Origin: Bilabrum cf. latius
Lineage: Eukaryota
Reading direction: 5' to 3'
NCBI GenBank assembly: GCA_965178125.1
Contig: OZ237752.1
Span: 124,001 to 188,000 of the forward strand
Length of the DNA: 64,000 nt
The notes beneath the pieces are model-generated. The model ran no database searches. It had not been told where the DNA came from and saw only the letters and a program-made list of their open reading frames with translations. Below are positions 3 through 49,120 of this stretch, piece by piece (the stretch's first letter is position 1; the number at the start of each line of letters is the position of its first letter). The position numbers and the translations under genes are program-made.

Positions 3-3000
3 GCCAAAGAGTGGGTGCTGACCCTCGCCTGCCTGCAGGAGGTCAAGAGAAGGGCAAGGGCGGAATCATACCAGATCTCTCAAATCGCGCAGACTGCAAA
101 GAGGAGGGGGGCAGCGCAGGCGCAGGCGCACGGTGTCAGCGGGGGCAGGGGTGGATCATCCCCACCCGGGGCGGGCGGTGCGGTACCTGCACCCGTGGCG
201 TTCGAGCGGAAACGTCGGCACACATCCACGGCGAAGAACCTTGCGCTGGCCGGACTCACCTCTGCTGCCAAGAAGGCGGCCGAGGCATTCGCCGCGCCCG
301 GCAGCAGTGCTGCTGCTGGTGCAGGGGGAGACAAGGGCAAGGGCGGCGATGCATCGCAGGCAAAGGGGAAGAGCGGGGGTCTGTCCGCGGGGAAGAAGAA
401 GAGGGTCTGGAACGCGCTGCGAGACAGGCTGCGGCAGGTCGCGCCGAGGAAGGACAGCGGCAGCGAGGACGTCGAGTCCACCTATTCCAAGGGATCTCTC
501 GAGTCGTCTGGCACGGGGTTTATGGGCAGGCCTCGCGGGGGCAGCGCGCTGGCCGGCTCTGCCACGACCGCCACCGGCACGGGGGGATCGAGCGGGACGA
601 GCGGACCCAGCGCCTCTGCTCCTGGCACCAGCAGCACAGGCGGCAAGGGCGGTACATCGGGCCCGCAGTAGGCGGCGGCGGGAGCCACTGCATCCAGCGG
701 GACCTCCAGCGCCAGTGCCTCCAGCGGCGTGTCATCGAAGGAGATCCCGTGCAGACCCCTGCAGCCTCCACCGGAAGGACAGGGAGAGGGACAGGGGCAG
801 CCCAAGCAGGGCACGCTGGGCCCCGTACCCGCCGCGCCTGCAGATGCCCCGCCCCCTGCGGCATCGGGCAATCTTCATGTGAACGTGCCCGAGATCCGCC
901 GGAGGTCTGACGGGAGCGTCGGTTCCCTGCAGCCCCTGACTCCCGCCCTCACGATGCTGGACGGCGCCGTGGACGACTCACCCAGGGCCAGACACGCAAG
1001 GAAGCTGTCGGGCATGCTGGGGACCCCCAGCCCGGTGAGGAAGAGCGCGGGGGACAGGGACAGGTCGGGCTCTCGCGACGGGAAGCCCCCTGCGTACATG
1101 CTGCCTCCCACGCTCCGTGACGAGCACAGGTCCAGCTCCGAGGGACAGAAGCAGCAGGGGCAGACCGGCCTGCTGCACCCCGGCACCGGCACCGGCACCG
1201 GCACGGACGCGGACGGTACGACCTCCGTGGAATTGCGTCGGGCGAGCGGGTCCGGGATCAAAGACTCGAGGCTGCGGGAGCCGATCCGCTCCCCCTCGGC
1301 ACCGACCGTGGAGCAGACCACACCCACGGTCGGTGCCGGCGGCCAGGATTCTGACAGTGCATCCGCCTCCTCCTCGACGGGGGAACAAGGGCAAGGGCAA
1401 GGGGTGGCGGAGAATGCCCAGCGGCGCAGCAGCAACGGCAGCGTCAGGCGCAGCGTGGCTGGCTCGCCCATGGGTCCGGCGCGCTCGACGGGGACGGTGA
1501 GCGGAGGAGGAGGAGGAGGAGGAGAGGATGCCCCCCACACCCCGAGGGACGTAGGTAATCGGCAGCGGCTGTCCAGCCAGGGGTCCGCGGGCAGCGGGGG
1601 CAGGCCTCCCTTGCAGCAGCAGCATAATCAGCAATAGGAAGAGCAGGACATCATGGCCATGAAGAGACGGGCCTCGGCTGCCCGGCGGAGGCACCGGCAC
1701 GGGATAATCGGGCGAGGGAACACAACGCCCATGCGGATCCGGCCCCGGGACATCGTGCGGCACATCGAAGCCCTGGAAAAGAAGAACAGACAGGAGGCGG
1801 ACCGCATGAAGCGGCTCGCGGACCACGGGCACCACCATGCAGTGCACCATAAGAAGGGCAGGGGCGCCGGCAGGGCGGCGGCTGGAGAAGGGGGTGGATC
1901 CGCGACGGGCAGTTCTTCGTCGCACTCGTCACACCCGGGGGCCGCCGCCCAGCCCGGCAAGCCGGGGCCCCGCGCGAGCCGCGTGCGCCGGCAGACGATG
2001 CGCTGGATGCAGAGCGGGCTCATGTCTAGGGACGTGGCGCAGCGGCTGGTGGAGCAGGCGCACGATGAGGACGACGAAGCGAGGGCGGCTGCGGCTGCGC
2101 GGCGGGCGCAGAGGGCGGCGGGCTCGCAGGCGGGGTCTTCGGGCTCGGGCACCGGGTCCTCCACGCCTAGATCGGGCGCAGACGGCCGGGTGGTGGTGAC
2201 CCTGGCGGACGCGACCGGTGTGGGGTCGTCTTCTGGTGGCAGCTACCTGGGCCCGGGCGACGTTGAGTTCGGCGAGGGAGACCAGTACGGGGTGCCAGGG
2301 GACCGGAGCTCACTCACCGGCGTGCATGAGGCCAAGGAGGGGGAGGGGTCAGAGGGGGGCGATGGGTACTCGGACAGCGGGGAGGACGAGGACGACGATC
2401 TGCTGGCCGGGATGTTCGCCCCACTGCCCTCGGAGCGCGACGTGGAAGCGGACCTCTCCACCCCCATGGTGGAGGGGGCAGACCCTTTGGGAGGCATGGA
2501 CCAGGAAGGCCTGGCGGAGGCGGACAAAGGGGCGCCCAGTGGACAGTGGGTGCGCCGCAGGAGGCCAGAGGACATCGCGAGGAGACTGCCGACCGTGGAG
2601 GCTTGCAATGCAATGCTTAAGGTGTATGCTACGAGGGGCCAGGCGGAGAGCGCCGCTGCTTTCTTGGCCTGCATGGAGGAGCAGGGGCCCCGCAAGGCGC
2701 CCAATGCGGAGAGCTGGGCGCACCTGATCCGCGCCCTGGGCAGCTCCGGCCTTCTGGTGGATGCAGAGGAGATCTTCGAGGAGCTCGGTCAGGACAAGGG
2801 CAGCGGGCTGCCGCCGCCGGAGTGCAGGTGGGCGATGCTCGAGGTGTGGGCCAAGCACGGCCTCGTGGACAGGGCGCGGACTCTCCTGGACGCGGTGCGG
2901 GCGGGAGGAGAGATCCCCCCGCAGGGGCAGTGGGCGCTTCTTGTGCGGGCTGCGGGGGCCGCGGGGGACCCCGAAGGCGTGGAGGCGGCGCTGGCCGAGT

Positions 3001-6000
3001 CTGTGAGCGGGGCGGGGGGCGAGGCACCCAGTCCCGCAGTGCTGGCAGCATTCGTCGAGGCATGCGCAGACGCCGGCGATTTGGCGAGGGCGGAGGGTGC
3101 AGTGGAGGCGATGCTGCTGAGGGGGCACCAGCAGCAGGAGGGTCGCAAGCACGCCCAGCTGGGTCTCATGGGCCCCGGGGCCGGTGTGGGGATCTCCATG
3201 GGCGCGGGTGGCGCCTCCCCCGGGGGCATCTCGTCCTCCTCCTCGTCTGCCTCGTCGTTTGGCGGGGGCCCAGTGGTGGCGGCGCTGGCCCGCGAGGCGG
3301 CCATGACAGAGGCGGCCCGGGTGTTTGGTGACTCGGACGAAAGCAGCTGGGTGTCGGAGGAGCGGGCGGAGAGCGTGGTGCGTGGCGCCGCCGACGGAAC
3401 CGAGGACCCGCTGGAGGTGGAGGAGCGCCGTGCGGCACGCAAACGCGCGGTGGATGCGCGGCGCCGGTCCGCGGAACGCGTGCTCCCCGTCGTGGCCCAC
3501 GCCCCCACCCCCGCCGTGTTTGCCGCTCTGATCCGAGGGTACGGCAAGGCCGGGCGCCTGCGCGCAGCCAGGCGCGTGTTCTCGCTGCTCCGAGCCACGG
3601 CGGAGAGGGCCGCCATGGAGGCTGCTGCGGCGGCGCGGCGCCGAGGGCTCGGGGCAGCCGACGCGGAGGAGGCCTCCATGAGCGTGCGGCGTCGGAGCGT
3701 GTCGCTGGACGCCTACAACGCGATGGTTGGCGCGCTGGCAGAGGCCGCCATGCCGGAGCAGGCCAAGGCCGTGCTGCTCGAGATGGACGCGGCCGGCATG
3801 CGGCCCGACGCGCGGACGTACTCGCTGCTCATCTCCGCGTACGGACGGCGCGGCCGCACGCGGGAGGCCAGGGCGATCTTCCAGCTAGCGCAGGAAGGGG
3901 AGCTGGCAGACCACGTGGAGACGGTGAACGCGGTGCTGGGGGCGTACAGGGAGGCGGACGGGGTCTCCTCCGCGACTTCCTTCGGCTCTGGTCCCTTGGC
4001 TGCTTCGCAGGTCACGCCCGTGGCTGGCAGCAGCAGCGCCGCGTCCGGCGGCGCTGCTGCTGGTGCAGGCTCGCACAGCAGGGGCAGGAGCAGCGGTTCC
4101 TGGGGCCTTGACGAGGACGGCCTGGAGATGCCCGGGTCTGCTGCCGCTGCGGTGGGAGGCGTAGGCAGTAGCCAGATCGGTGGGCCCCGCCGGAGCTCTG
4201 CACTGGCCGAGGCAGCGTACAGGGGCATGACTCGGCGAACAGAGGGCGGCATGCCACTGCAGCCGGACGCAGGCACGTTTGCCGCCTTGCTGCGGGCCGC
4301 GGTGGACAGGGAGCCCATGGATCGCAAGAGCGCGCTCGCCGGCGTGCTGCGGCGCATGCGGGAGCGCAAGGTGGCCCCCTTGGAGGGAATGTACGCCGCA
4401 CTGCTGGGGAACAGCGGTCAGGGCGGGGACGGGGCGGAGGGGGGCTCCTCCGGGTCGTCTGGCGGCAGCGCGGGCGGCGCTGGGGCTGGGGCCGGCGGCG
4501 GTGCTGGAAGGGGCGGACGGGGACCAGCCGTCGTGCCTGACGTGGCCGACGCGCTTGCTGAGCTGGTGGAGCGCGATGCGCTCGGGGTGTGGCGGCGCAC
4601 GCGCGTGGCCGAATCTCTGTGCGGCGCGTTCGTGTCGGCGGGACGGCTTGCAGACGCGGAGGCGGTGATGGGCTCTCTGGCCCAGGAGGCGGACGCTGGG
4701 TGGGCGCGCTGGGCCGAGGGTGCGGGCAGGGCGGCAAGGGAGACCATCGCTGCAGGGGGTGTGGCGGACGGGGAACAGGGTGGGGCGGATGGGTAGGAAG
4801 GGGGCGCCCAGGGGCGCATATCTAGGATGCAGCTGCGCGCTGCCGAGCTTCGGGCCGATGCAGCGGTGTGGGCGCGCAAGGCGGCGGCGGTTGCCAGGTG
4901 CTTTGGGCGTCTGGTGGTGCAGCGGGCGCAATCGGGTGACACCGACGCGGCCGCGGGCCTGCGACGAAAGCTGCTTGAATCTGGGTCTGTGCGCCGGCTG
5001 CTGTCCCTTGTGCAGAGGGCCTTCCCCTGTCTGATCGTCGAGCACTTCCTGCTGGAAGGGTCACTCGGGGGCGGGCGGGCCAGGGACACAGAGGCGAGGG
5101 GGGCCGCCCGGGCGCTGGCCAGCCGCCTCCTGCCAGGGCCGGACGAGCTGCGCGCAGCAGAAGACGCGCTGGACTGGGTGGACGCGGCCGACATGGCTCT
5201 GGTGGTGGCCTTTGGAGCAGCACGCAGGCTGGCGGAATCATGTGCGGCCCTGCAGTGCGTGCTCCGGAGAAGGAGCAGGTACGGCCGGGCGGTCGCGGAG
5301 AGGCAGGCCCGCCGGGATGCGGGAGACCTGCCTCCCGTCTAGGCGGAGGCCGTGCGGGTGCATCGCACTGCGGAGCTGGAGCGGGCCGGGCTCGAGGAGG
5401 AGGGGGTCGAGCAGCAGCGATTCAGCCTGCGCGATGACGAATCCGCCGCCGATGGATCCAACCCGTTCCTGCAAGGCATCCAAGCCGAAGACGGGGACGA
5501 CATCGGGGGAGTCTGGGCGGCTGCGGGCGCCCCGGGTGCGCGCGGGGGTCGTTCGGGCGGCCCGATGGCACTCGGCGGGGTGTCGTCGCGCACGATAGAC
5601 CCCTTAGCCGACCTGCCGAGCACTAGCACGCTCTGGGGCTGGCGGTTTGCCCGCACCATGGTGGAGCGGCAGCGGCGGGTGGCCGAGGCGGAAGCGGAGG
5701 AGAACAGCCGGGGAGGACAAGGGCAGCGGCAGCCGAGGCCAATCAGGCTTCAGAGCCCGCTGGGCGCAGGCAGCGTGCTGGGGATGTCCAGGTCGGCAAC
5801 GTTCAGCGGCTTCACCATAGACGGGGTGTCGGCAGGCGGCATTGGAACGCGGGAACGAGGCGCTGCCTACAGCGCTGCATCCGTGGCAGTGGTAGGAGGC
5901 AGGCGGGGACCGGTGCAGTGGGCCCTGGGTTTGCTCGTGGGCTAGAGCCAGGGGCTGGTCTGGAGCGGCGGGTCACCATCGCATGCCGCGGGTCACGATG

Positions 6001-9000
6001 CGCAGTTCACCACGTCAGCATCCGCCGACCTCTCCCGGGAATGTGCCGACGACGCCGCGCCGCTCCTGGCCCTGGCCGCCGGTGTGGCTCTGGCGGGCGC
6101 GGGGCCGGATGCGGCTGCCCGCGCCCTGCTTGGGCTCGCCACGCGGGAAGGCGTCCTCCCCACCCCCGCAGTCGTGGTGCAGCTGCTGCGTGCAGCCGTG
6201 GCCGCTGGCCGCGGCGACGAGTCGCTCCGCTTGCTGCGGGCCTGTCGCACGGTGGCCGCCGGGCTGGGCGCCACGCCTGCGCAGGAGCAGGCTCTGGCAC
6301 ACTCGCCCGAGGTGGCCGCGGCGTGCCTCCGGGCTTTAGGCTCGGAGGGCAGGGCCGGCGACCTCGTGCGGTTCTGGGAGTCCCACAAGTAGCACCGCAG
6401 GGCCTCCGCCGCGAGAGCCAGGGAACAAGGGCAGGGTGCATCGCAGGGCGGCGGGGCCGGCGGCATGCGGGCGGCTGGAGCCTTTGCAGCCGAGGACGAG
6501 GACGATGGCAGGGAGGCAGCGAGCACGAGCACGGCCAGCGTGCGGCCCCCGCCCCGGTCTCCGAGAGGTGTGCCGCATCCGGCGGTCGCCCTTGCGATGC
6601 TGCAGGCACTGCCGCAGTGCATTGCACCCGCAACCACCGATGCCTCAGGCCCCTCCCCCTCCCCCTCCTCCCCCTCCCACCCCCGGCAAGGCATCCAGGC
6701 AGGAGACGCCCTGGCCCTCGCCCGCGCATGCGTGCGGGAGCAGGCCAACTGTCCCGTTGTTCCCTATGCCCCCGGGGTCCTGGAACTGTGTTCCCTGAGT
6801 GAGGCACTGCTGGCGACCGGGGCTCCGAGGTCTGCCCGAGCTCTCCTGCGCCAGCTGCTGGCCAGCGTGTGCGGGGAGGCGTTCGGGCCCACCAGGCTGC
6901 GGCAGGAGGACGAGGAGGACCAGCGGAAGGGGAGGCTGCCGGGAGAGGCCGGTGGCAGCGGCGGTGCCATAGCGGAAGAGGCGGACGCCCTGCCTGCCTG
7001 CGACAAGAAGGACGGGCTGCTGTTCGGTGCCGAGGACCCTGTGGGTGCATCGCACGCCTCTGTGGAGCAAGCCAGGCTGCTGGTGGAGCTGACCAGGGTG
7101 CTGCCGCCCGGGTCTGCGGGTGTGGTGCTAGGTGCAGGCGCGGACGCGAAGAGGCAGGGGTAGTTGCGGGCAGCGCGAGGGGAAGACGATTCGCAGCTGG
7201 GCGCCGTGGCTGCACTGGCGGCGGGTCGGGGCCTGCTGGGATCCGCTGCGGGCGCTACTCTCCGGGCGATGGCCGGTGCAGCACCTCCGCTGGACGCCCC
7301 CTCCTTTTGTTCCCTGGCTTTGGCGCTGGGGCGCGCCGGTCTCTCCCACGAGATCGGCGGGCTGGTGGAGGCGGCTGAGGGCACGGGGTCCCCGGCGCTG
7401 GGCACCGCCAACGGGACGGCTCAGGCGGTGAGCATGGGGCTGGCTGCGGCGGGGGCCGCGGAGGCGTCGGCAGCCGTGTGGAGCGACTCTCGATTCGAGG
7501 TGGACCCGGCTGTTGTTCCCCGGGCGGCGTCGAGCGACCCGCTGTGCCCCGCGCTGCGGCAGGCCCTCAGGGAGGCAATGGACGCGAGGCGGAGGAGGGG
7601 CGAGTCCACCGCTGGATTGGCAGGGCATGACGAGGGCGGGGGGGCGGGGTCGATTAGTGCAAGGGGTGGCATGGGCAGATCCAGGGGCAGGGGCAGGGGC
7701 AACTCGGTGCGTCAATCCCTCGAGTCCCTCGCGCGAGACGGGGGGGAGGAAGAGGACGAGGAGGAGGACGAGGGCAAGCTGGGCCTGGGCCGGCCCTCCT
7801 CTTCGTCCTCGTCTTCCTAGGGACTGGCCGCGGTGGCAGGGGACCTTATGACGGCCGCGGGGGCGCAGCGGTCCACCCTAGACGGTCCCAGGGGCGCCGC
7901 CTCCGTCGCCACGTCAGCGCACGTGGTGGCCCTGTGTTCCGCGGGGTTCGTGCACGCGGCAGTGTACACGGCCGAGGTGGCCTGCGCCCGCCGTCTGAGG
8001 CTGCTGTCCGACGCCGTGACGGCGCTGCTGGAGGCGTGCTGTTCCCTGGGCCGGGAAAAGATGCGGGAGGGAAGCCGGTTCGGACCCGGGGCCGCACTCG
8101 TCACACAGTCTCAGGACAGGGACGGGTCAGCCCCGGGGTCGAAACCGCCATCCCTCGCCTCCTCCCCCCCAACCTCCTCCTCCTCCGCGGGGGGGGGCTT
8201 GGCCACGTCACTTGGGGCCACTGCCAGCGGCGCCGCCCTCGCCCTCCTGACGGGTGCTGCGCTGCCTCCCATGCCAGCGGAGACGCGGGAGCTCCTGAAG
8301 CAGGCGAGGGCGAGAGGCAGCGCTGGCTCGTCCCTTCCTCACTCTCGGTCCACCAGCCGCTCCTCATCCCCCGGGAGCCTGGCCGTGTCCACGGTGGCAG
8401 GGGGTGCGGGCGCCGTGTCAGGCGGCGGTGGGGGGGTGGACCCCGGCAGCCTGACAGACGCGCTGGCGATGGATACTCTCCGCGGCACCCGACTCGCCTT
8501 GCCCGAGGGTGTTTGTCTGCTCGCGCGGCTAGAGCACGTGGGGGCCGGCCAGCGGACGCTGGGGTGGGGCCCCCGGCCGCGGGATGTGAGGGTGCTGGTG
8601 CAGCTGTACGGGATGGCAGGGGAGGTGCAGGCGGCCGAGAGCCTGGCGTTCGCGGCGCTGGACGGCTGCAGCTCCGGCGCGGCTGCGGTGCGGCCCGGTG
8701 GAGAGGCGAGGCGGAGGCTTAGGGCGAGGCACGCCGCGGCACTGGCTGCGGATGCAGCGGCCTCTGTAGCGATGCGCCCGGGCTCCGCGCCGGGGCCAGA
8801 GTCGGGTGGGTCGGGCATGCGGGAGGAGGTTCCCAGGGGCCACCTGGTGCACATGTCGGGGGGTCGGACACGTGCCCTGCGGCGGGACTCGCTGGGATTG
8901 CACGCCAGTGCCGATGAGGTGGCCTGGGTGTGGGGCACGGGCGCCGCTTCGGGTGCCGGAGTGGGGGCTGCGTCAGGATCTGGGTCGCACTTTGCGCCAG

Positions 9001-12000
9001 AGGCAGGTGCTGCCGCGGATGCCGCGTTCATGGAACGCGCGCGCGGCGAAGGTCTCGAAGAGTCCGTGGCTGTGGCGGCTGATGCCAGGGCCGAGGCAGC
9101 TGGGCTGGCGGCGGACGGCGGCATGCTCTTCGGCAAGCCGCATGCCGCGCGGATGGCGCACCGGGAGGTGCTGGGGCTAGGGGATGGCGAGGACGATGAG
9201 GCAGAGGACAGGGAACTACAACAACGAGGAGGAGAAGAGAAGCCGCTCGCCCTGACGGATGGGTCGCCCGGGTCCTCCCAAGCCTTCTATCTCCCATTGA
9301 TGGAGGCAGGAGACCTGCGAGGAGAGAAGGAGCAGTCGCAGGGGGGGGCTTTCGTGCCAGCAACCATGAGCCCCACGAGGCAACAGCAATAGCAATAGCG
9401 GCGATCAAAATTGGAATCTGGAGCACGGAGCCGTCGGGCCGCAGACTCGAGCGCCGCCTCTGCACTTCGCGCGCTGGCCAACGCCGCGCTCACCCCCGGC
9501 CACGGGGTCGCGCCCTCGTCCCAAGCAGCCGCCCGAGAGGTCGCTGCCGGCTTGCTGGGCGCGCTGGTGAGTGCCTGGGCCTGCGCCCCCAGGTCTGCGT
9601 ACTCTGCCGGTAGCGTATCCCGGCTCTCACTGGAGGTGGTGCGGGCTGCCGCGGGTGATCTCGACTTAGGCGACCTTCCCTGGGTAGAGGCCGGCTGTCG
9701 GCAGGTCGAGTGGAGGCTGCAGCGGCACGGGCTGGTTCTGGACCCGCCCTTGCCCCGGGGCGTTCAGATGGCGCGGGTGCTGGCGGCTGGCTCCTCCGAG
9801 GCTGCTGCGGACGCGGGTGGTCTCCCCGCAGGGGACATCAGGCACCTCTTGCCGGTGGCGGGTAGCACCGGCACAGGGGCGGGTTCCCTTGTACTGAGGG
9901 CGCGGGCCGCCGGGCTGCTCTTCGCGGCTGCCGAGGATCTGCGGTGCGATCAGCGGCTGCGAGGGTGCGTGATGGCACTGGCCAGCAAAGAAGCCGCCAC
10001 CGCTGCCTAGAAACGGACCACGGAGACGCAGCAGCAGCAAGGCGGTGCCGGCAAGCCTCGGTCAGCGTTCGCGTCCAAGTTCAGCCCTTCCTCTCCCGAG
10101 AGGCGCGTGGCATTCACCGAGGACCGGTCAGGGAACAACGCGCCGGGGAACAACGAGGGCGCCCAGGATGCCGCGCGCAGGGCTAGGGCCGCGGCGGGCC
10201 ACGCCCGCGCCCCCTTGCCCGGCTCGCTCCCTGCCGCTAGCCTCGTGTCCGTCCTGGCCTCCGTGGGCATCGGCACGACGCTGGCGCCGCCCAGGTGCAG
10301 CGAAGCGCCCAGGCGGAGGGCAGCAGCCCAGGCCTACCTGGCCTCGTTGCCCAAGCGGGACCCAGGTCCGCCTTCCGAGCTCTCAGGGGGTACTGGGGGA
10401 GGAGGTGTGGGGGCTGGTGGGTCGTACACGGATGCCGATGAGGTGCTGGGTCTGGCCGCGGGGATGCCAGGCGTGCCTGCGCTGCGGCACGTCGGTGGTG
10501 GTGGTGGCGACAGCAGGGGCGGTGCGGGTGGAGTGGGTGTGAATGTGCCGCGCGGGGGAGGACGCGATGGTCCTGCGTGGACTGCGCTTCTTGGCGACGA
10601 CGGGCAGGGTGAGCTGCCTGCCGGCCTCTTCTTCGGGGAACAGCGACCAGGAGGAGGGGAGGAGGAGGAGAAAGAGGAGGGGCGGCGGGCGGATCGGATC
10701 AGGCGCGCCGCGGGAGGGGCCGGCGGGGGGGAGGGAGGGGACGCGGAGCGGCAGCTCGCCGCGAGTAGTATTGGCTCCGGGTCTGTGGGCGGGCGCCCCG
10801 ACGTGGAGGGGAGGGCGAGGAGCCTCCGGGCGAAGCTGCTCGAGGCCGGGTCCGTTGTGACCGAGCCTGACGTCAGGGCTGTGGAGGCCGAGGTTATGGC
10901 GCTGGCGCTAGAGGGAGACGACCTGCGGAAGCTGCGGAACGAGGCGGAAGCGGAACTGCGGCGGGTCGCGCAGGCCCTTGAAGAGGAGGAAGAGGATCTC
11001 CGGGACGAGGACGGCATGGCCGGGGGCACCACAGCGGCGGCATCGCTCGAGGCGGCAGCGGCCATGGTGGGGTCGTCCACTCGTCACACCGTGGATGACG
11101 GGGTAGGGAGTGGTAGAGGTTCCCCGGACCGCCACTCGTCACACCCCGCAGCCGACGGAGTGCTCCTGCTCGCCCGCAGGACGAGGGCGCTTCGGGCGGC
11201 TCTGACCGACTTGGAGACCCAGGGCACGGCGGCCCGGGAGGCCTGGACCGAGGGGCAGACGGCGGGGTTCCATCCCGCGGACAGGCCCGCCAACCGGCTC
11301 GTGCCGTCGGGCGCCGGAGAAGGTGGACTCGGAGCCGAGGAAGACGATGTTGTGGTGCCCGTGTCAGCGGCGGTGGGGTCCTTCGAGCGGTGGGCGGAGC
11401 ACTCGCAGGCGATCGAGGAGGAGGAGCAGGCCGCCAGGGAACAACTGGCGGACGTGTCTCGCCGCATCGCTGCACTGGAGCTGGCCCAGGACGAGGCCCT
11501 CAGGAGGTTCCGCATAATGCAGCGGCGCGGCGCCCACGAGGCGCGGGAGGCCTCCAGGCGGGCCCGGGGGCTAGACTCGACTCCCGGGGAGGACCAGGGG
11601 CAGGGGCGTGCCGGCCAGGAGGGGTAGTCCGGCTCAGGAAACAAGGCCCCGGAGGTGGCCGGGCTGCTGTCCACGGCGGCCGCTGCCGCAGCCCCACCCC
11701 AGGATGCGATGCGTGCCCCCGGGGGCCGGGGGGGCAGTGACCCCACCGGGGGGACGCAGGGAGACGGGCGGGAGGAAGAGAACCCCCCCCATGGCCGGGG
11801 TCCCGCGGGCGTGGATGAGGCGCTGCTGCCGCGAGCCCTCGTGGCGGCTTTGGGCTCCGAGTCGTCGCTCCCCGCCGTGGTGCTGTCGCCGTTCTCTGCC
11901 GCAGTGGTGCGCGCACAGACCGCCCGGGCCGTGGCGGCGGAGCGCTCAAGACTGCTGGCCTCTCGGCTGGCGGCGCAGCGCCGGTTCGAGGCGGCCCTGG

Positions 12001-14537
12001 CGGCGCAGGCCCAGCTGGCCGAGCGGGCCCGGTCCGTGGTGAGGGGCTGGTCCCGGGCCTCGACTCTGCTGGAGGAGGAGCTGCAGCACACCACGCGGGA
12101 GCTGGCGCTGCAGGGGAGGGAGGAAGCCAAGGCGCAGGCAGAGCTGGCGCGGCTCAGGGAACAAGCGGCCCAGGCGAAGCGCGCATCGGACGCTGCGCTG
12201 GTGGTGGCGCGGGCCTACAGGGACAGGGCGGGGGGGAGGCTGAGGCAGGCACGTGTCGAGTCCGATGCGCTGGGGCGGCACTCGGCCGGCAAGGCCGTGG
12301 CGGACGCGACCCACGCGGCGGCCACGGTCGGCCAGGAGCTTCTCTCTGCCGCGAGGCAGGAGGCCGTCTCGGAGCTGCAGAGGGCCAGGGACGAGGTCCA
12401 AGCCAAGATCACGGCGGTGCCCGGTCAGATGCGCAAGGCGCTGGAGGAGGACCTGGCTCCTGCACTGGAGCAGGAGAGGAGAGAGGCAGAGGCAGTGGCA
12501 GCCAAGAAAGCAGAGCTAGTGCGCGAGCTCCGGAAGAAGAGAGAGGAGTTGGCTGAGGCCTCGAGAGAGGCGGCGGCGGCGGCTGCGGGACTCGACGTGG
12601 AGCTGCACACGTCCCAGCTGGCGGCCGTGGCGGGCACCGAAGGTTCGCTGCAGCTTCGCCCGGTGACTCCGGGTCGCGCGCCTGCTCCGGCTGGTGGAGG
12701 CTTCAGCTCCCCCCCGCAGGCCGGCAGCGGCAGGGGCCCGCTGGAGACCCTCCCAGCATCGGAGCCGTCGTCCGACTCCCCCGGGCGCTCCCTGCAACGG
12801 CTCCTGCAGCAGTCCGTGCCTCCGGGCGTGACCGACCTCCGGGAGCCCCTGGCCCAGCTCGCCGGTGCCCTCTTCGGGGATGCGGGTGAGGTGGCAGAGG
12901 TGCTGGAGGCCGTGGAGCGGTGGAGCGACGGGGACGCCCAGGACGCCATGGAGGCCGCGGCGGAAGGGGCGGCCAGGCAGGCCAGGCAGGCGCTGCTGGA
13001 GGAGGACGGGGCGAATGCCGCTGCGGCGGCAGCGGCGACGGTCGGGTCGCACTCGTCACACAAGCCCTCGAAGGCGGCCCTGCTGCTGCGCGTGTGGGAC
13101 GAGGGGGTGCTTCCTGTGGAGAGGGCGACGTACGAGGCTGAGCTGGCGCGGGCGCTGGAGCAGCAGGGGGCGGCTGGCACGCCGGCGGAGCTGGCGGCTC
13201 TCCGGAGAACAGTGGCGGGGGTGGCCAACGGCTTGAGCGTTAGAGAGGCCGTGGACCTGGCCGTGGGCATGGGCAACAGGAGGGGGCGGGGCGGGCGCCG
13301 GGGGAGCGCACAGTCAGGATTTGGGTCTGGGTCAGCCATCGCCAGCCATCGTCGCGGCTCCAAAGTAACCGAGGGGGCCCAGTCCGCCTTCCTTGGCGGG
13401 CTGGGGCTGTCCATGGCCGGCGAGTCGGCTTCGGAGAGGAGCAGCCCGGACTCGGCATCTGCGGCAGGAGGCTTGGATGCCGGCGGCACTCAGGTGCAAG
13501 TGCAGGGACAGGGGCAGGGGCAGTCCGCTTCTGTGGCGGAGCAGGAGGCGCGGCAAGCGGCCCTGCTAGCCGCAGGGGTGCAGGACCCGGAGTCGGTGAT
13601 GCAGGCCAAGGAACAACGATCCGCGGCAGACGGCCGTCCAGGGAACAAGCGGGTGACGGATCCCAGCGGGTCCGGCGTGGACCTCACCGTGCTGCCCCCG
13701 CTCGTGCACTGGCGCTTGCTGGAGCGCGTGCGGGGGGGCATGGAGCGAGCGGCCGCCCTCGGCCTCGGGATCGGTGTGGGCGGGATTCGGCGGAGGGGCA
13801 TCGGGCAGGGGCAGGGAGGGAGCAGTGTCTCCTCGGCTGCCTCGGTGTCCAGCTCTGCTTCCGCCACCGAGGCGCCTCAGTCCCGGGGTACAGGCAGTGG
13901 CCAGGCCAGGAGGGGAGGTAGTGCGCTGCGGCGCGGCAGCTCGCACGTGGCGATGCTCAAGGCCCTGCAGGAGTCCGGCGCCGGGGGGGGCATGGGCGAT
14001 GTGACCCCGCCAGGGGGACTGGCGAACGTTCCTCCAGGTTCCTTCTCCTTCGCCAGCACTAGGCCCGGCGAGCCCCGGCGCAGCCCGGTGGATCGCTCGG
14101 GGTCTCCTTTCCCTGGGCACTCGTCACAGGGCCGCAGGCTGCTGCCCGAGGAGAAGCAGGTGCTCAGGCAAGGGGCGCTGCAGCGGCTGGCGGGAGGTGC
14201 TGTGACGAGTGCGCAGGGCCGCGGGCCCGGCTGGGCAGACGCGCGCGTGGGTACCACGTCCGTCTCGAGGCGCCGGGGCGGGCCAGGTGTGACGAGTGCG
14301 GCGTCGCCGGGCGCGCTGTCGTCCAGCCCATCCTCGGTGCGGTTCGCTTTGGAGGCTGGGCGGGAGGGACGGGCGGTGGCGCAGGAATACCAGCCGAAGA
14401 ACGATGCGACATCGAGGGAAGTAAGCGCGCCCGCCGGCGACGGTCGGCGCGCAGAGAAGAGTAGTGGTCGGGACGCGGGCGAGCAGGAGGAGCAGCTCCG
14501 TGCTCGCCTGTTTGCGAGGAGGCGGCGCGCTCGCTGA
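3..14537 (+). CDS. Giant pentatricopeptide-repeat (PPR) protein, 5'-partial, at least 4844 aa when TAG is read as sense
   Basis: ORF-track pieces starting at 15, 729, 1653, 4827, 5352, 6084, 6465, 7164, 7833, 9411, 10107 and 11655 are all in one frame. They are separated only by 12 TAGs (669, 1635, 4794, 5340, 5943, 6390, 7161, 7818, 9390, 9396, 10008, 11625) and end at TGA 14535-14537. PPR-like motifs lie at about 2590-3950, e.g. PTVEACNAMLKVYATRGQAESA, PTPAVFAALIRGYGKAGRLRAARRVF and DAYNAMVGALAEAAMPEQAKAVLLEMDAAGMRPDARTYSLLISAYGRRG. Coiled-coil-like segments lie near the C-terminus. Confidence 0.8.
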
Positions 14538-15510: not shown

Positions 15511-18010
15511 ATGTCATCAATCGGAAAGCGAGTTGTTGTGCTCAAGGTGGGAACGTCCAGCATTTTAACCCCGGACTATTCGTCGATTCGGCTGTCAATG
15601 ATAGCCACCATCGCGGAAGTATGCGCTCGGCTGAAGGTGTTCGGCTTCGAGCCGATCGTCGTGAGCTCTGGAGCGGTGGGCGTCGGTTGCGTGCGATTGC
15701 ATCGAAAGAGCCGCCCGCAGGAGATTTCGACCGTCCAGGCGCTCGCCTCGGTCGGTTAGGGCTACTTGATGCGCATGTGGGACGATGCTTTGTCCGCGGT
15801 GAACCTGCGGGCCGGCCTAATCCTGCTCACGTACGATTCGTTTGGCGAGCGCGCCCATTACAACGCGGCGAGCGCATGCTTCCAGGAGATGCTGAAGATC
15901 GGAGCAGTGCCCATCGTGAACAATAACGATGCCACCGGCGTCACACAGATTGAGGACAACGACACGCTCGCGGCCATGGTGGCAGCAATGGTGAGGCTTT
16001 GATCTGGCCGTCCGCGGTACAAGATTCGCAAGGCGCCGTGCCCCGCGCATTGCGCAATGTATTGTGCATTGGTGTGTTCGTGTGCTAAAGCGCTTGCTTT
16101 CGTCCATTCCCACGCCCCGCCCCTGCTACCACCCCGCGCCCACTCGCACCTCCTCTCTTCACCCGATTTGTTCCACCCATCCTCCCCCCCCCCCACCACC
16201 CATGCAGACGCAAGCGGAGCACTGCTTCATCCTCACAGACGTGAATGGCCTCTACACGGCCAACCCCAGGACGGACGCCCAGGCCCGCCTCGTGCGGTCG
16301 GTGCAGCCCCGGATCCTCCCCCAGCTCAAGAAGGCCCTCCAGCACGAGGGAACAGACCTGGGCATGCTGCTGGCGGAGGCCTCCCAGCAGGGGGCGGCCA
16401 AGCTCGCGGGCCCGCCCCCGGCAGCAGTGGCTGCCGCAGCGGCCGCCGCAGCCGAGGCGGCAGCGGCGGCCGTGGCCGTGGCCGCCGAAGCCGTCGCCGA
16501 GTCCCAGGCCATGGCCGCGGAAGAGGCCCAGATGGCTGCCTCGGGAATGGGCAAGTACCACCACGGGGCCATGGTGACCGCGGGCATGAGGGCTCTGGGC
16601 GAGAGAGTGCTGGGCGGGGGGCAGCAGAACGGTGGCCAGTGGGGCCAGCACAGCGGGGGCATGGGGAGCCAAGGGGGCCCGCAGCAGCACTCGAGCGGGT
16701 CGCTGCTGGCCATCGGGCCCCCGCCCCCGGGCTCAGCCGCCGGTGCCTCGGACGACGACGACGCCGCGAGCTCAGTGGCCCGCAGCAGGGACGACCCGGA
16801 ATCGGATCGGGAGTCCGACATGGGCTCCGGGAACGGCGGGGACTCGGGCGCGGGCTACAACCAGGGAGGCAACCGCTCCGTGGCGGGTCTGGCGCACCAC
16901 GTTGCCATCTCCTCCCGGGCCTCTGTGGGCTCCCGCTGGTCCAACGACGGGAACGGGAGCCTTTCCGGACACGTGCCCGCGGGCAGCGCCTCGGCCTTGG
17001 GCTCAGGCACGGGCGAGCGGAAGGCCTCCGGCGACTCGGCCGCGCCAGCGGGCATGGCCGTGGCGGCCGTGACCCCCCCGGGCCCCCAGCCCAGCACGGG
17101 CGCGGGCAGCGAGGCCAAGTCTGGCGACGGTGACGGTGACGACGACGAAGACAAGCAGAGGAGCGGGACCTGGGGTACAGGCGGGATGGCCACGAAGCTG
17201 ATCGCCGCCCAGATCGCCACTGCCTGCGGGGCGACCTACCACATCATCGCGTCCGATCGTGTGACGAGGGTACCCGAGGCTGTGGCCCATAGGAAGCGCG
17301 TGGGCACGATGTTCCTTCCATGCGCCCGGCCCATCAAGGGCCAGAAGCGCTGGATCCTGAGCCTGCAGGCACAGGGCAGGCTGGTGATGGACATGGGGGC
17401 AGCCGGTGCCGTGATCCACAACCGCAAGAGCCTCTTCGCGGCTGGGATCGCCTCTGTGGAGGGCGACTTCAGCGCGCACGAGGCCGTGCTGCTGGTGGAC
17501 CCACGAGGGCACGAGCTGGCGCAGGCCATGGTGAACTACTCCCGGGACGAGGTGGACAAGATCCGTGGGGCGGACTCGAAGGACATCCCCGGGCTGCTGG
17601 GCTACGAGGGCACCGACACCGTGTGCCACCGGGACAACATCGTGGTGCTGGGGGAGAGGGCCTCGGTGGCGGAGGACAAGGACGAGGGGGGGGCCAGCGT
17701 GCCCCCACTGGGGGGGACCGCGGCCCCGCGGCTGCCGAGCTACCCCACCCACGGGGAGGACAAGGTGGGGGAGGCCTAGGACGTGAGAGGGGATGCCCTG
17801 CGTGCGGCCGACGCCGCCATGCGAGCGGGCGGGATCGGCACCAAGGGAAAGTCGGGGTCTGCCAGCACATCGGAGCTGCAGGCTCTGGCGGGCGCGGGCG
17901 GTGGGCAGCAGCGCCGCGTCTCGGGCGAGCACGGGGACTCGAGTCGCTCGCTCACCCCGCTGGCCCAGCAGATCGAAGCCAATCTCGCGGAGCAACGAAA
18001 ACAGGAATGA
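15511..18010 (+). CDS. proB: Glutamate 5-kinase with C-terminal PUA domain (ProB/Pro1 family); exons 15511-15990 and 16208-18010
   Basis: Motifs VVLKVGTSS, IVVSSGAVGVG, QALASVG*GYLM, PIVNNND, DNDTLAA, ILTDVNGLYTANP, GTGGMATK, and PUA-like GRLVMDMGA..SLFAAGIASVEGDF..VCHRDN. GT-AG intron 15991-16207 (phase 0). In-frame TAGs at 15757 and 17777; TGA stop. Confidence 0.92.
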
Positions 18011-20478: not shown

Positions 20479-23400
20479 TTAATCATCCTTGATGCGCCTC
20501 TCCCCGGCCCTGCCTCCACCGCTCGTCCTGCAGCACATCACCATGGACAGCAGGCACGTGGTCGCCACCCAAGCCCCGTTGCACACTGCTGATCCCGCCT
20601 GAACAGGCCATCGCACCGCCGCCATCACTGCGTTGGCGCTGGACTCGATTCCCCCCGAGAGCAGCAGGCAGGGCGCCATGATGCACACCCTAAGGGCGAG
20701 AGACACGAGGCGGGTTGGCCCCAGGCTGCGCGCTGCAAGCCCGCCCCCGCTGCCACTCCTCACAGCGACCGCCTGCGACGCCCGACCGTGGCTACCGGAC
20801 CCAGCGATCAGCCCGCTCTCGTGCCCTGTCGCTGCCGTGCTTCCCGACAGCACGGTGTCGCAGTCCCAGTCGTGGACCCCGTCGTCCAGGCCTCTTGTTC
20901 CCTCCACCTGGGGCTCTCCACCCTCTGCCACCTGAGGCAGACCTCCCTTCCCATCGTGTCCCCCCTCAGCACCACTGGGCTCTCCTCCGCCCAGGCTAGA
21001 ACTGCTCCCGGCCCGAAACACGCTGAAAGCCCCAGAACCTGCCCTCAGCCCGAAATCCCGCAGGTCACTCAGTGAGCCCGCCCCATCGTCATCGTCACTA
21101 TCTTCATCTTCATCCATGCCCGCGCCGCCTTCTTGGTTCTCTCCGTCGCGCCCACGAGCATGGGCATCGGTGGGTTCAGCAGCGCTCCGTGGGGCGGGGG
21201 CGCGCGCTGGCTCAATAGGTGCTCCTCCATGGTCGTGCTCATGGTCGCTGGGGACGCTGCCGGAGGTGCTTCCTATGCTCCCGTGACTCGCTGCCGTTGA
21301 ATCGATGCCCGGAGCAACGTCCGCATTGTGCATGCTGTGCACGCTGGAACGCCGTTGATTCATCCCCCCGCCCTCCACCGTGCCACCTCTCATGCCATCC
21401 GCGCGCCATCGCGCCGCCCTGCTGTCGGCCTCCTGCCTGGAAATGCTCTCCTGCAGCTCCCCCACCACTCCTCGCAGGCTATCTGCGGCTCTCTGCGCGA
21501 TGTCTCTGCTCCTCTGGGCCGCCCTCCTGGCCCTGCGCTCCGCCTCCAGCTCCTTCTCAACTGCTTCCAGCCGCTGCAGGGCCACGTCACGCTCGGCGGT
21601 GGCGCGCTGCCTGCGGTCGACGGAGGAATGGTGCCGGCTGAGGGTGCTCCTAGCAGAACCCCGGCGATGCATCCCGTGAGTTCCTGTGCTATTGACTATC
21701 GCACTGCCACTGCCACCAAGTTCACGCGCATTCCCGGCGCCATGGAAATGGCCCATGCCACCGAAACTGCGGGCTTGCTCGCTGGGCATTGGCTGTGCCG
21801 TGCTGGACCTCGCCACTGGCAATCCCTTCTGCTCCTGGACGTGGGACCACCTGCTGCCCACAACGCTGCCATTGCCTGGATTGCTCGTGCTTGCAGCTGC
21901 CGGCAGTGCGCCAGTCCCGATGGACCCACCGCTGGGCACGCGGGACTATCCATCGGACGTGGGAGATGTCGTCGACAATGCTTGATCCCTGCTGCTGGAG
22001 AACAATGATCGCGCCAGACCGAATATGCCTGTGCCAAGGGCAGCACCCGCACCCTCACGGCTCGCGGTCCCACTGCCCTCCTGCGCTGCCCCTCTTGCCT
22101 TTGGTGCATCAGGTGCTGGAGTGGGCGGTACCCACCCACCTCCGTCCGATGGAGACAGGGCAAACGCAGCATCCTGCACCTACTGACCATCCGTCGCTGC
22201 ATCTTCGGGGCTTGCCCGAGACCCTGACCCAGCCGGGCGTAGCAGAGCAGCAGATGAGCCCCCCTGCCTGTTGTTACCGCTGCTACTGCCGCCAATGCTC
22301 TCCTTGCTGCGGAACCGACGGCGCCGCGCGACAGCTCCATCCACCGGAGAACTACCCCGCTCCTGGTCCTGGTCCTGGTCCTGGTCGGGTGTGTGCAGCA
22401 GCACACCGCCGTCCATCGTCACGCCAGCGCCCAAGCTGCCGTCGATCGCAACTCTCTGACCAATGGACACCCCAGGTGAGCTGCTGCCTTCATCTCCTTG
22501 CTCCTCTTCCTCTTTGTTTACCACCTCCTGGCCGTCCCCATCGTGCCCTGGTTCCCACCCGCCTGCGTGCAACCCCTGTGCATGCAGCTCAGCCCGTGAC
22601 ACGTACCCGCCATCAGCAGGTCTGCCATCCCGGGCACCACTCTTAGCCGTTGAACCCGCAACCGTCCCTGTCGCCGTTGAACCCGCAACCGTCCCTGTCG
22701 CCCCATCTCCCCCTCCCCCTCCCCCTCCCCCCGGCAGCAGCGGCACGTTGAACACGTCAAGGTCAGACACCGCAGCGGCCTGGCTCCAATCGCTCGCGTT
22801 GCTGCCGCGGCGCTCCATGGGCCGCCGCCACCGGGACATGGACATGCTGCTATCGCTGCCGCGCCGGTTTCCGATAGACGGGTGCACTGTGTGGTGGTGG
22901 GAGAGCATGCGGTGGCCAATGGCACTGCTGGCTCTAGCATTCGGTCGAGATAGGCGAGACGTACTACCCAATGCAGCGCCGTCCACAGACGCACGGGCCA
23001 CAGCTCCCGAGAGCCGGGGGCTATCGGCTCTGGTCCGTAATGCAGCTTCTGTGGCGACACGCTCCAGCCGAGTGCGGCGCTCGGTCGCCGCTTTCTCTTC
23101 CTTTGCAGCAGCAGCTGCGTCGTCGAGGTGCGCACCGAGCATGCCTTCCTGCATCGTGCCAACTCGTTTCAGTAGGACCGCGCGCTGGCGCTCCGCTGCG
23201 GCGGCTCTTTCCTTAGCCTGCTCTGCTTCTTTCCGAGCGGCCTCTGCTTGCGATTTCGCTTCTTGTAGCTCTACTTCCAGAGCCTCTTGGCGCCGCAGCA
23301 GCCGGAGCCCGATGGCGGCAGCCTTGGCCGCGGCGTCATCCTCATCCGTAGTGTCTCCATCCTCCGTACCGCCGTCTGTACCCTCGAAAGAGCCATCATC

Positions 23401-37022: not shown

Positions 37023-38006
37023 ATGGCTTCGACAATTACGGTGAAGGAAAGCCCGATTGCGGCAATCGTCACGTTGAGACGCTAGCTCGCGGAGCGAGGG
37101 CAGCGAAGTTTGACTTCATTCATATCCAAGGTTAGGGAAGCTGATATTTCCGGCGAGGGTCGTCTGGACGAGGAGGAGCTAGACATTGCGATGCGCTCGT
37201 CTGGAGTGTTTCTTGGCAAGCGCGATCTCGGCGCCCTCTCGCGATCGTTAGATGCTGATGGGTCAGGATTTTTGTCCGTGGAAGAGCTGGTAGCGGCGGT
37301 AAGGGGCGATTTGCTTGGCCGCCGGCTTGCGATCGTGGACAAGGCATTCGATCGCCTGTGCTCGTCAGGAGCCGCAGTGGGCGGGTCGAGCGCCGCCGAT
37401 TCCGTCTCTTTGGAAACCGCCGTGGGAGCCATGCGGGTGGAAAAGCATCCCGACGTGGCGGCTGGCCTCGCGGACGGAGAGGCCATGCGTACCCAGCTGG
37501 CCGAGGCGCTGGGCAGGGGCATCGCGGCGGGGGCATCCTCTGGCTCCGGGAAAGGGGGCCCCGACGCGCATGTGGACAGGGAGGCATTCCGCTTCGGCAT
37601 GGGGGAGGCAAGCGCCTGCGAGCCCATCGAGGACGAGTTCGTTGCGGGGATGGAGGCGGTGTGGGGGTGCAGCGAGGCGGTGGTGGACGAGGGCGTGGAG
37701 GCCTACCTTGGCATCATGAGGGAACAAGCAGACGCCAAGCGGTCCCCGGGGGAGAACCAGAGGCAGTACCTCCGGCGGCAGCTGCAGAGGTTCGACCTGG
37801 ACGAGCACAAGGGTCTGAGCTTCGACGAGTTCAGGAGGGCGGGGGAGGTGATCGGGCTGCCCCTGAGCCTGGCAGAGGCCCAGAGGCTCTTCGACGCCAT
37901 GCCCAAGCTGGCGTCAAAGGGGGGCCTCGAGGACGTGCCCAGGGCGGGGATCGACGAGGCGGTGCTGTTCGTGTTCGGGACAGATCCCCAGCCCACGCGG
38001 GGGTGA
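37023..38006 (+). CDS. Calcyphosin-like EF-hand protein
   Basis: EF-hand loops DISGEGRLDEEE, DADGSGFLSVEE and DLDEHKGLSFDE; calcyphosin-like RRLAIVDKAFDRL and KHPDVAAG. N-terminus LRR*LAERG has TAG at 37083. TGA stop. Confidence 0.8.
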
Positions 38007-38283
38007 TTTCCCTCCCCTCCCCAGCTGCTGTTGCACCCATGAACCCTTATGCTGATTCCAGATTTGGCCAGAATCCCCGGAATAGTTGCGTGCACTGAAG
38101 TCGGCCCCTGATGACGCCCATCGCCACTTGCTGGGCGCCGCGCCGACCACTGATTGTCCTCTTGGCGGGTGCACTGCATGCTAGTGAGTAGAGCCTGTTG
38201 CGTAACATTCCTAGAAAATAACTTTCCTGGGGCCAAATCACACGCAACAACTACCAACTTTCATCGTCGGCCTCAAGCATAAA

Positions 38284-47479: not shown

Positions 47480-49120
47480 ATGCGATCCTATGTGGCAGCA
47501 GTAGCCGCAGCCGGAATCCTCGCCTCTCCAGGCCTCGCCGGCCTTCTTTGGCCGTACCCGCAGCAATTCAACGCTGCCAGCCCCGCGGTGCAGCTGAATG
47601 TAGATGCTTCTTCATTCAGCATCAATCTGAAATCTGCGAGCGGTCCGGAGACTCCGCACCTGCAGGACTCGATCCAAAGGTATTCCAAGATCTTTTTCGT
47701 GCAAAAGACCAGCTACTACCCGCCGGGCACGGGCAATGAGGCGCATGTTGCTCCCCATTCTGCATCACTGGTATCGCTGGATGTGACAGTGGCGGACAGC
47801 GCGGCTCCGCTGGAGCTGGGCGTGAACGAGTCGTACTCGCTGCATGTCCCGTCGAGCGGCGGGAGCGCCACATTGCAAGCCGAGACGGTGTGGGGCGCGA
47901 TGCGGGGCCTGGAGACGATGTCGCAGCTGCTGGACTGGAGCGGTGACGGGAATACGTTTGAGACACCGGCGTGCGAGGTTGTGGATTTCCCTCGCTTCTC
48001 GTGGCGCGGCACGATGATCGACACATCGAGGCATTATTTACCGATGCCCACGCTGTATCGGGTGCTTGACGGGATGAGCTACAACAAGCAGAACCGCTTC
48101 CACTGGCATCTGGTGGACGATCAATCGTTCCCTTTCGTGAGCAAGATGTTCCCGGACCTATCGGGCAAGGGGGCCTTTTACGCGCCGGCCACCACGCACA
48201 CGTACAGCCCGTCCGACGTGCAGGCCGTGATAGAGTACGCGAAGAACAGGGGCATCTCGGTGGTGCCTGAGTTCGACACACCGGGGCACACGGCATCGTG
48301 GGGGGCGGGGTATCCTGACCTGCTGACGGCGTGCTACGACAAGCAGGGGCAGCCGGATGGCACGCGGTACGCCATCAACCCCACGCTGAACGGGACGTGG
48401 TCTTTCTTGGACGCGTTCTTCGGCGAGGTGTCTGGCGTGTTCCCTGACGCGTACGTGCACGTGGGCGGGGATGAGGTGAGCTTCGGGTGCTGGCAGTCGA
48501 ATCCGGGCGTGCAGGCGTGGATGAAGGCGCGCGGGTGGACGGACTACTCCAAGCTGGAGAACTACTACGTGCAGCGGGTGATCGACATGATGACCCAGGA
48601 GCACAATCGGAGCGTGATCGGCTGGCAGGAGCTGTTTGACAACGGCCTGGCCCTGCCCGAGAGCACCGTGGTGGACGTCTGGAAGGGGCACGGCACGGAC
48701 GCGTGGAAGGCAGAGATGGGCAAGGTGACCAAAGCGGGGCATAGGGCGCTGCTGAGTGCGCCGTACTACCTAAACTACATCTCGTACGGGGACGATGCGA
48801 ACACTTACTACTCGGTGGAGCCGACCGATTTCGGCGGGGACGAGCAGCAGCAGTCTCTGCTCATGGGCACCCAGGCCTGCATCTGGGGGGAGTGGGTTGA
48901 TGCGACCAACGTGATCTCGCGATTCTTCCCGCGGTCATCCGCCGTGGCAGAGCGTGGATGGAGCGCCAAGAGCAAGAACTCCACCACAGAGATGACGCCA
49001 AGGCTCCATGCGCACCGCTGCCGCATGAACTACCGGGGGCTGCAGGCGGAACCGCAGGACCGCTCGACGCCCTGCCCCTCCGAATGGAATCCCGCGTACA
49101 ACTCGCCCTGGTCCTCATGA
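47480..49120 (+). CDS. Beta-N-acetylhexosaminidase, GH20 (HexA/HexB-like)
   Basis: Signal peptide; LWPYP, ESYSL, DFPRFSWRGTMIDTSRH, FHWHLVDDQSFP, PEFDTPGH, catalytic HVGGDE, CIWGEWVD, PRSSAVAER. Intronless, no TAG, TGA stop. Confidence 0.95.
   Translation: MRSYVAAVAAAGILASPGLAGLLWPYPQQFNAASPAVQLNVDASSFSINLKSASGPETPHLQDSIQRYSKIFFVQKTSYYPPGTGNEAHVAPHSASLVSLDVTVADSAAPLELGVNESYSLHVPSSGGSATLQAETVWGAMRGLETMSQLLDWSGDGNTFETPACEVVDFPRFSWRGTMIDTSRHYLPMPTLYRVLDGMSYNKQNRFHWHLVDDQSFPFVSKMFPDLSGKGAFYAPATTHTYSPSDVQAVIEYAKNRGISVVPEFDTPGHTASWGAGYPDLLTACYDKQGQPDGTRYAINPTLNGTWSFLDAFFGEVSGVFPDAYVHVGGDEVSFGCWQSNPGVQAWMKARGWTDYSKLENYYVQRVIDMMTQEHNRSVIGWQELFDNGLALPESTVVDVWKGHGTDAWKAEMGKVTKAGHRALLSAPYYLNYISYGDDANTYYSVEPTDFGGDEQQQSLLMGTQACIWGEWVDATNVISRFFPRSSAVAERGWSAKSKNSTTEMTPRLHAHRCRMNYRGLQAEPQDRSTPCPSEWNPAYNSPWSS

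Follow-up and report, generated by a model that had tools for sequence, protein, structure and literature searches.

In a window of 64,000 nucleotides from Bilabrum cf. latius (assembly GCA_965178125.1, contig OZ237752.1, positions 124,001–188,000 of the forward strand), the codon UAG is almost certainly a sense codon. The reading that we favor with good confidence is that UAG encodes glutamine and that UAA and UGA remain stops, as in NCBI table 15, labeled "Blepharisma nuclear code", and in Iotanema spirale. A first-pass annotation of this DNA had placed an in-frame TAG on a conserved glutamine of a glutamate 5-kinase gene and had identified UAG as Gln. Both claims held up in the present analysis: the kinase column, the Gln-rich neighborhood of TAG, which resembles that of CAG and CAA, and the positions at which proteins of relatives end all point to this residue. 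The GC content of the window is ~65% overall and ranges from 58 to 73% across 4-kb bins. The window is best explained as nuclear DNA of a GC-rich, intron-poor eukaryote.

With the three standard stops, the longest open reading frame (ORF) in the window comprised 1,053 codons. Once TAG was freed, the maximum length rose to 4,845 codons, and the ORFs of ≥200 amino acids summed to 56,452 instead of 39,819 amino acids. Freeing TAA as well left the maximum unchanged and lengthened the total by ~18%, which is about the share of TAA among the remaining stop triplets. Over both strands of the whole window, TAA, TAG, and TGA occurred 337, 640, and 1,286 times. In-frame stop triplets were counted in 18 ORFs with a total of 17,487 codons. 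These ORFs contained 67 TAG, but neither TAA nor TGA; as they had been delimited by TAA and TGA, the two zeros arise partly by construction and carry weight only where ORFs are long or genes are supported by homology. ORF lengths and Pfam support do not arise by construction. The two other frames of the same ORFs held 99 and 63 TAG, 33 and 36 TAA, and 269 and 225 TGA, and at least one in-frame TAG was present in 16 of the 18 ORFs. In the longest of them, a PPR-repeat ORF (positions 3–14537), the off-frame counts were 47 and 30 for TGA, 4 and 4 for TAA, and 21 and 17 for TAG.

Of 25 long ORFs that continue through TAG, 12 contained Pfam families, among them PPR, MLH1, metallophosphatase, beta-helix, EF-hand, DDE_1, GH20, TBCC, katanin AAA, and SCC3. 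A further scan added MLH1 exon 1, a glyoxalase gene, and the katanin MIT exon to the homology-supported set. For 65 TAGs, the GC contents of the first, second, and third codon positions (GC1/2/3) were 0.65/0.55/0.68 over the 40 preceding codons and 0.68/0.55/0.69 over the 40 that follow. Past the 16 terminal TGA or TAA triplets the profile was flat (0.54/0.55/0.54). The claim that UAG is not a stop was thus borne out: among the three stop triplets only TAG occurs inside long ORFs and homology-supported genes, and coding periodicity persists past it. In-frame UAG within conserved, otherwise intact genes is what characterizes the code of table 15 and of Iotanema.

The residue is indicated most directly by the glutamate 5-kinase gene (ProB/Pro1-type). 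In the frame from ATG 15511, positions 15733–15780 read V Q A L A S V G TAG G Y L M R M W. Both kinase domains scored over their Pfam cut-offs (AA_kinase, 74.5 bits; PUA, 60 bits, E = 2.2e-16), and AA_kinase profile positions 165–198 resumed in exon 2. In the PDB, exon 1 matched eight distinct sequences (E ≤ 0.001), with bacterial glutamate 5-kinases at the top (4q1t at 1.1e-21, together with 2w21, 2j5t, and 8zpj; range 1e-21 to 4e-19). All four printed PDB alignments were colinear from residue 6–7 to residue 158 and gapless near codon 83, with the TAG opposite the Q of "aavgq". Additionally, a HMMER scan of 1.84 billion representatives yielded 5,826 proteins at E ≤ 0.001. For the column counts, exon 1 with X at the TAG was re-aligned to 149 of the best 150 representatives, giving 150 aligned stretches; the 150th representative, P0123, is near-identical to the window and was omitted. 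Column 83 held Q in 143 stretches, M in three, G in two, N in one, and a gap in one, and Ser, Leu, Glu, Lys, Ile, and Tyr were each found in 0 of 150. Only three of the 160 exon 1 columns (76, 83, and 103) were at least 50% Q. At the other residue columns conserved to at least 90%, the window agreed in 25 of 27 cases. On the kinase's own record, therefore, column 83 would favor Gln by roughly nine to one, which is strong evidence for this residue, short of proof.

An intron across codon 83 is not possible, because conserved residues would be lost. This agrees with the first-pass annotation, which had seen no need for an intron around this TAG; the actual intron lies further downstream (Table 1). 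As judged from its domains, the kinase gene is intact except for its TAG codons. Domain order and homology to solved glutamate 5-kinases are those of bacterial and fungal-type ProB/Pro1 proteins (AA_kinase followed by PUA). In contrast to those proteins, the window gene has one intron, an insert of ~290 codons, and a tail of 134 codons past the PUA match, and it encodes Leu at column 103 and Asn at column 138, two departures at near-invariant columns within an otherwise conservative sequence. The insert (16380–17170, + strand) is in frame, of low complexity, rich in Ala, Gly, Ser, and Asp, and separates the AA_kinase core from the GTGGM motif. It may be a genuine insertion or may conceal an in-frame intron.

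Sequence context provided a second line of evidence. After trimming of the ORFs to the first Met, 61 TAG, 643 canonical Gln codons, and 16,493 other residues were compared. At least two canonical Gln within ±3 positions were found for 6 of 61 TAG (9.8%) and for 63 of 643 Gln codons (9.8%), compared to 369 of the 16,493 others (2.2%; Fisher p = 0.0025). Among the other residues, Trp came closest with 4.7%. At ±1, Gln adjoined 9 of 61 TAG, 12.0% of Gln codons, and 6.9% of others (p = 0.025). Specific Gln runs include TAG, such as CAG CAA TAG at 1629–1637, and another run contains it twice (Table 1). Ser behaved differently: at least two Ser within ±3 occurred for 7 of 61 TAG vs. 429 of 1,611 Ser codons (p = 0.007), although three TAGs adjoin Ser runs. 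A neighbor likelihood placed Ser 25 log units under the best residue, and its calibration put TCN codons first in 20 of 20 runs. Leu and Glu were 7.9 and 17.4 log units under the best residue at K = 3, but Leu was barely separated at K = 1 (0.8 log units). Over all calibration runs the true residue ranked first in 35% and among the top three in 55%. As this method is weak, and poor for Gln, it was used against Ser only and not counted as support for Gln. Ser is thus disfavored by two tests, and Leu and Glu are disfavored mainly by the single kinase column together with a weak context test. A search of the window for internal paralogous repeats pairing TAG with CAG returned low-complexity families only. 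TAG accounts for 67 of 710 Gln-type codons (9.4%) and is one C-to-T change away from CAG.

Predicted proteins from close but non-identical relatives, five of which were met in the searches, gave a third indication. The EF-hand protein P0276 (96% identical; window 37191–37763) ends directly ahead of the window CAG at 37764, and the GH20 protein P0003 (69% identical; window 47480–49054) ends directly ahead of the CAG at 49055. The C-terminus of the GH20 protein is common to the window and P0004 (83% identical), and P0003 falls 22 codons short of it. Both premature ends among the relatives thus lie at Gln codons, and Gln makes up ~3.7% of residues. Furthermore, P0123 (window 15769–15999) and P0276 start at the first Met past the window TAGs at 15757 and 37083. 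Since the tail of P0123 differs from the window intron, this protein comes from a distinct sequence. Such starts and ends are expected of gene callers applying the standard code if the relatives use TAG for Gln, which suggests that the relatives share the code and were misannotated under the standard one. Named matches of the GH20 protein come from animals, Cafeteria, and one EukProt transcript (~46–53% identity); the nearest relatives reach 69 and 83%.

Concerning termination, 14 of 16 ORF ends were TGA and two were TAA. In the GH20 and EF-hand genes, the terminal TGA lies where the related proteins P0004 and P0277, respectively, end. Similarly, katanin (...EFGAT) and MLH1 (...FERC) end in a TGA that directly follows what we take to be the C-termini of these families. 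To judge from these ends, UGA terminates genes and is the main terminator. One of the two TAA ends is convincing, although cases are few and the genome is GC-rich: the TAA at 20479 (Table 1), past which the next in-frame TGA comes >100 codons on, inside the convergent neighboring gene. TAA therefore looks like a stop as far as ORF structure tells, although its occasional use as a sense codon is conceivable with so few cases. In the PPR-repeat ORF, no in-frame TAA was found, and ~2 were expected from its 12 TAG and a CAA:CAG ratio of 107:536.

The remaining TAG sites were less instructive. Three of them, in the EF-hand gene (37083), in the transposase (39070), and in katanin, had been offered by the first-pass annotation as weaker support. 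They are real in-frame TAGs, but none of their columns is conserved as Gln. The column of TAG 37083 has A in Tetrahymena RIB22, D in RIB57, and E in P0278; human calcyphosin presumably has Q there. The three TAGs of the katanin MIT exon stand opposite N, K, and M of mouse KATNA1. The homologue searches supplied only three proteins each for the transposase and the EF-hand gene, and a PDB search gave no match for the transposase. The column of TAG 39070 has N in all three homologues, leaving the proposed motif PxQIxNxDETG unsupported, and four more transposase columns have E, C, E/K, and T in the same three related proteins. Being variable, these secondary columns show that TAG is a sense codon and say nothing on the residue.

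Several points weigh against the assignment to Gln or limit its strength. In the kinase itself, the window has Leu (CTA) at column 103 (15817–15819), where 147 of 150 stretches have Gln, and Asn at column 138 (15922–15924), where 149 of 150 have Glu; hence a conserved column gives no guarantee. Only one of ten alignable TAG columns, that of the kinase, is conserved, and the other nine are variable, none of them with Q. The Gln-context counts are not fully independent because some TAGs share a run. The neighbor likelihood at K = 3 ranked Lys and Ile 0.3–0.9 log units over Gln, and its calibration was poor for Gln, with CAG at ranks 5–18 and CAA at ranks 2–15. For the relatives, the evidence comes from predicted proteins. 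Finally, a tRNA scan of the window found no genes, an Rfam scan of the window gave no matches, and no eRF1 gene is located within the 64 kb. Since a single informative conserved column, together with statistics on context, underlies the assignment, and since the kinase has Leu at another Gln column, we consider Gln very likely, but unproven. The features on which this reading draws are listed in Table 1.

Table 1. Coordinates of the features discussed (positions within the 64,000-nucleotide window)
Feature	Position	Strand	Remarks
PPR-repeat ORF, open at window start	3..14537	+	4,844 codons, 12 in-frame TAG, 0 TAA, 0 TGA, TGA end
Gln run with two TAG, CAA CAG CAA TAG CAA TAG	9381..9398	+	sequence
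Glutamate 5-kinase (ProB/Pro1-type), exon 1	15511..15990	+	160 codons, AA_kinase E = 1.3e-20, PDB matches
In-frame TAG, codon 83 of exon 1, on the Gln column of "AAVGQ"	15757..15759	+	homologue alignment
Kinase intron, GTGAGG...C-rich tract...CAG, phase 0	15991..16207	+	frame stop (VRL*) at 16000–16002, profile resumes at 16208
Kinase exon 2 (AA_kinase tail, low-complexity insert, PUA)	16208..18010	+	Pfam
Second in-frame TAG of the kinase	17777..17779	+	exon 2 frame
Kinase terminator TGA	18008..18010	+	end of exon 2
TAA closing 1,166-codon ORF (5 in-frame TAG)	20479..20481	-	edge of AT-richer gap between convergent genes
EF-hand (calcyphosin/RIB57-like) gene	37023..38006	+	TAG 37083–37085; CAG 37764–37766 where P0276 ends
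Pogo-like DDE transposase ORF	38206..40632	+	808 codons, 10 in-frame TAG (one at 39070), no TAA/TGA inside, TGA end
CAG (Gln) in GH20 hexosaminidase gene where P0003 ends	49055..49057	+	22 codons short of conserved C-terminus
Katanin p60 MIT-domain exon, three in-frame TAG (53770–72, 53764–66, 53719–21)	53719..53772	-	KATNA1_MIT E = 7e-13
Cohesin SCC3/SA-like ORF	53980..61608	-	2,542 codons, 4 in-frame TAG, TGA end

Other explanations were weighed against UAG as Gln with UAA and UGA as stops. It is improbable that UAG is a sense codon for another residue, such as Ser as in Scotinosphaera, Leu as in the rhizarian exLh, Glu as in Blastocrithidia, or Lys or Ile. Precedents for such assignments exist (PMC8271138; PMC5304391; PMC12153298), and the nine alignable columns without Gln, the slight preference of the neighbor likelihood for Lys and Ile, and the three TAGs next to Ser runs speak for this explanation. 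However, none of these residues, nor Tyr, occurs at the kinase column, and TAG matches Gln codons in its Gln context, of which no other residue reaches more than half. Both premature ends among the relatives fall at a window CAG. Serine in particular is contradicted by the kinase column and by both Ser-context tests. Somewhat different is the case for UAA and UAG both encoding Gln (NCBI table 6), with UGA as the sole stop and TAA merely rare in a GC-rich genome. The dominance of TGA at ORF ends, the scarcity of TAA relative to TAG and TGA, and the joint change of UAA and UAG in most known lineages treated in the cited reports (PMC5304391; PMC11687900) would suit this code, but we regard it as unlikely. 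Freeing TAA did not extend the longest ORFs, in-frame UAA was not found as a Gln codon in long ORFs or homology-supported genes, a comparison of limited power, and the 1,166-codon ORF closes in a TAA at an AT-richer intergenic gap; given the small sample, these observations only weaken a joint reassignment.

A dual, context-dependent UAG, read as sense inside genes and as a terminator at some ends, would parallel UAA in Blastocrithidia and all stops in Condylostoma. Genes ending in TAG would be invisible to the ORF method used, and the TAG at 17777, in the non-conserved C-terminal tail of the kinase 58 codons past the end of the PUA match, is the sole candidate terminator. Yet the 76 codons from this TAG to the TGA have a coding-like GC1/2/3 of 0.75/0.58/0.79, compared to 0.58/0.59/0.50 after the TGA, and all four checkable C-termini (GH20 and EF-hand against relatives, katanin and MLH1 against presumed family ends) end directly in TGA, so that we assign a dual meaning a low probability as well. 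Least probable of all is that TAG is not decoded, but stems from a pseudogene nonsense mutation or a sequencing error, or is corrected by U-to-C editing of the mRNA. CAG becomes TAG by one C-to-T change, and editing would likewise give Gln; but editing or decay should have hit TAA and TGA too, and the 67 in-frame TAG contrast with no TAA or TGA in 18 otherwise intact ORFs. Moreover, the AA_kinase and PUA domains of the kinase are intact, and the near-identical but distinct public sequences P0123 and P0276 break at the same places. Pseudogene, sequencing error, and RNA editing were rejected on these grounds.

Under the favored assignment of UAG to Gln, UAG would have been lost as a stop and would be translated as an amino acid, most likely Gln, with UGA (mainly) and UAA continuing to terminate. 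The TAG at 15757 would then be one Gln codon like any other, at a conserved Gln position of an intact kinase gene. What the window shows is that UAG is read through in frame and behaves like an AT-richer synonym of CAG. For lineages that read UAR (UAA and UAG) or UAG as Gln, decoding by a tRNA-Gln with anticodon CUA is generally assumed. By analogy, such a tRNA may decode UAG here, and eRF1 may have lost recognition of UAG and kept that of UAA and UGA. Cognate tRNAs and eRF1 changes have been described for Blastocrithidia (PMC12153298).

Reassignment of UAG alone to Gln has been reported in Iotanema spirale (PMC5304391) and in Protocruzia tuzeti and two phyllopharyngean ciliate lineages (PMC11687900), and has been named "genetic code 15" (PMC9523058). 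The window resembles the fornicate Iotanema spirale, Protocruzia, and the phyllopharyngeans in that UAG alone appears to be reassigned, UGA is a stop, and UAA looks like one. The UAG share of Gln codons is likewise close, ~9% in the window vs. ~8% in I. spirale (PMC5304391). Unlike those cases, the window has 58–73% GC, long multi-gene DNA, a resident transposon, and a giant PPR protein. PPR proteins usually serve organelle genomes. By our own reasoning, a PPR protein would fit an anaerobic fornicate poorly, and high GC content and gene layout would fit ciliate macronuclei poorly.

Table 6 codes, with UAR read as Gln, are used by green algae of the Dasycladales, Cladophorales, and Trentepohliales, hexamitid diplomonads, Streblomastix, Amoeboaphelidium protococcarum, and many ciliates. 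With these the window shares a stop read as Gln, TGA as the dominant terminator, and the interchangeability of TAG with CAG; it differs in that TAA was not seen in frame and closes one or more long ORFs. In Amoeboaphelidium, TAG and TAA both encode Gln (PMC6299283) and the GC content is ~40% (PMC10608142), compared to ~65% in the window; on these two grounds the genus was rejected as the source. UAG is translated as Ser in Scotinosphaera (PMC8271138) and as Leu in exLh (PMC5304391). As seems to be the case in the window, these two reassigned UAG alone and retained UAA as a stop (PMC8271138; PMC5304391), but the kinase column and the Gln-like, not Ser-like, context set the window apart from them.

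With ~65% GC, few introns, a transposon, a giant PPR protein, and ciliary-type genes (katanin, RIB57-like EF-hand), the window fits none of the listed lineages well. The literature search found no GC-rich non-ciliate lineage with UAG alone as Gln, which does not show that the case is unpublished. Code variants of this kind are known; the lineage may be new. Tentatively, and with somewhat less than even confidence, we propose an independent origin of UAG-only reassignment to Gln in a GC-rich, intron-poor, probably aerobic flagellated eukaryote that is neither ciliate, fornicate, aphelid, nor ulvophyte, whose environmental relatives (69–96% protein identity) appear to share the code and whose group has public gene predictions that are systematically cut at TAG.

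In the cited reports, nuclear codes that split UAG from UAA are few (Iotanema, Protocruzia, some phyllopharyngeans, exLh, and Scotinosphaera). With every new case, ideas on the co-evolution of release-factor specificity and suppressor tRNAs can be tested, and a GC-rich genome is an unusual setting beside the AT-rich ciliates. In practical terms, annotation of this genome and of its relatives with the standard code leaves a large share of genes truncated or split, and the public proteins P0123, P0276, and P0003 look like casualties of such annotation.

Further observations concern individual loci. The PPR-repeat ORF has its repeats at approximately residues 1237–1315, the remainder being mostly of low complexity and rich in Ala, Gly, and Ser, and encodes an unusually large PPR protein. 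The transposase ORF is apparently intact and has a GC content of 0.55, below that of its surroundings; nowhere in the window is TAG denser (~27% of Gln-type codons), and the element seems to be adapted to the code of its host. Two long ORFs with in-frame TAGs, at 40929–42911 (+ strand) and 43160–45208 (- strand), matched no Pfam family, and ORF 41067–42908 had no PDB match; in the former of the two we read a presumably GH-A-like "EMGNEF" motif. Between MLH1 exon 1 and the metallophosphatase gene, a small gene of the glyoxalase/VOC family lies at 28556–29680 (+ strand), with a Glyoxalase match at 29192–29680 (E = 2e-05) and probably an upstream exon. At 34958–34972 (- strand), TAG GGC TAG GGC TAG GGC precedes the first Met of the beta-helix ORF, just past the stop of the upstream gene. 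As this repeat is probably non-coding, it was kept out of the context counts by the trimming to the first Met.

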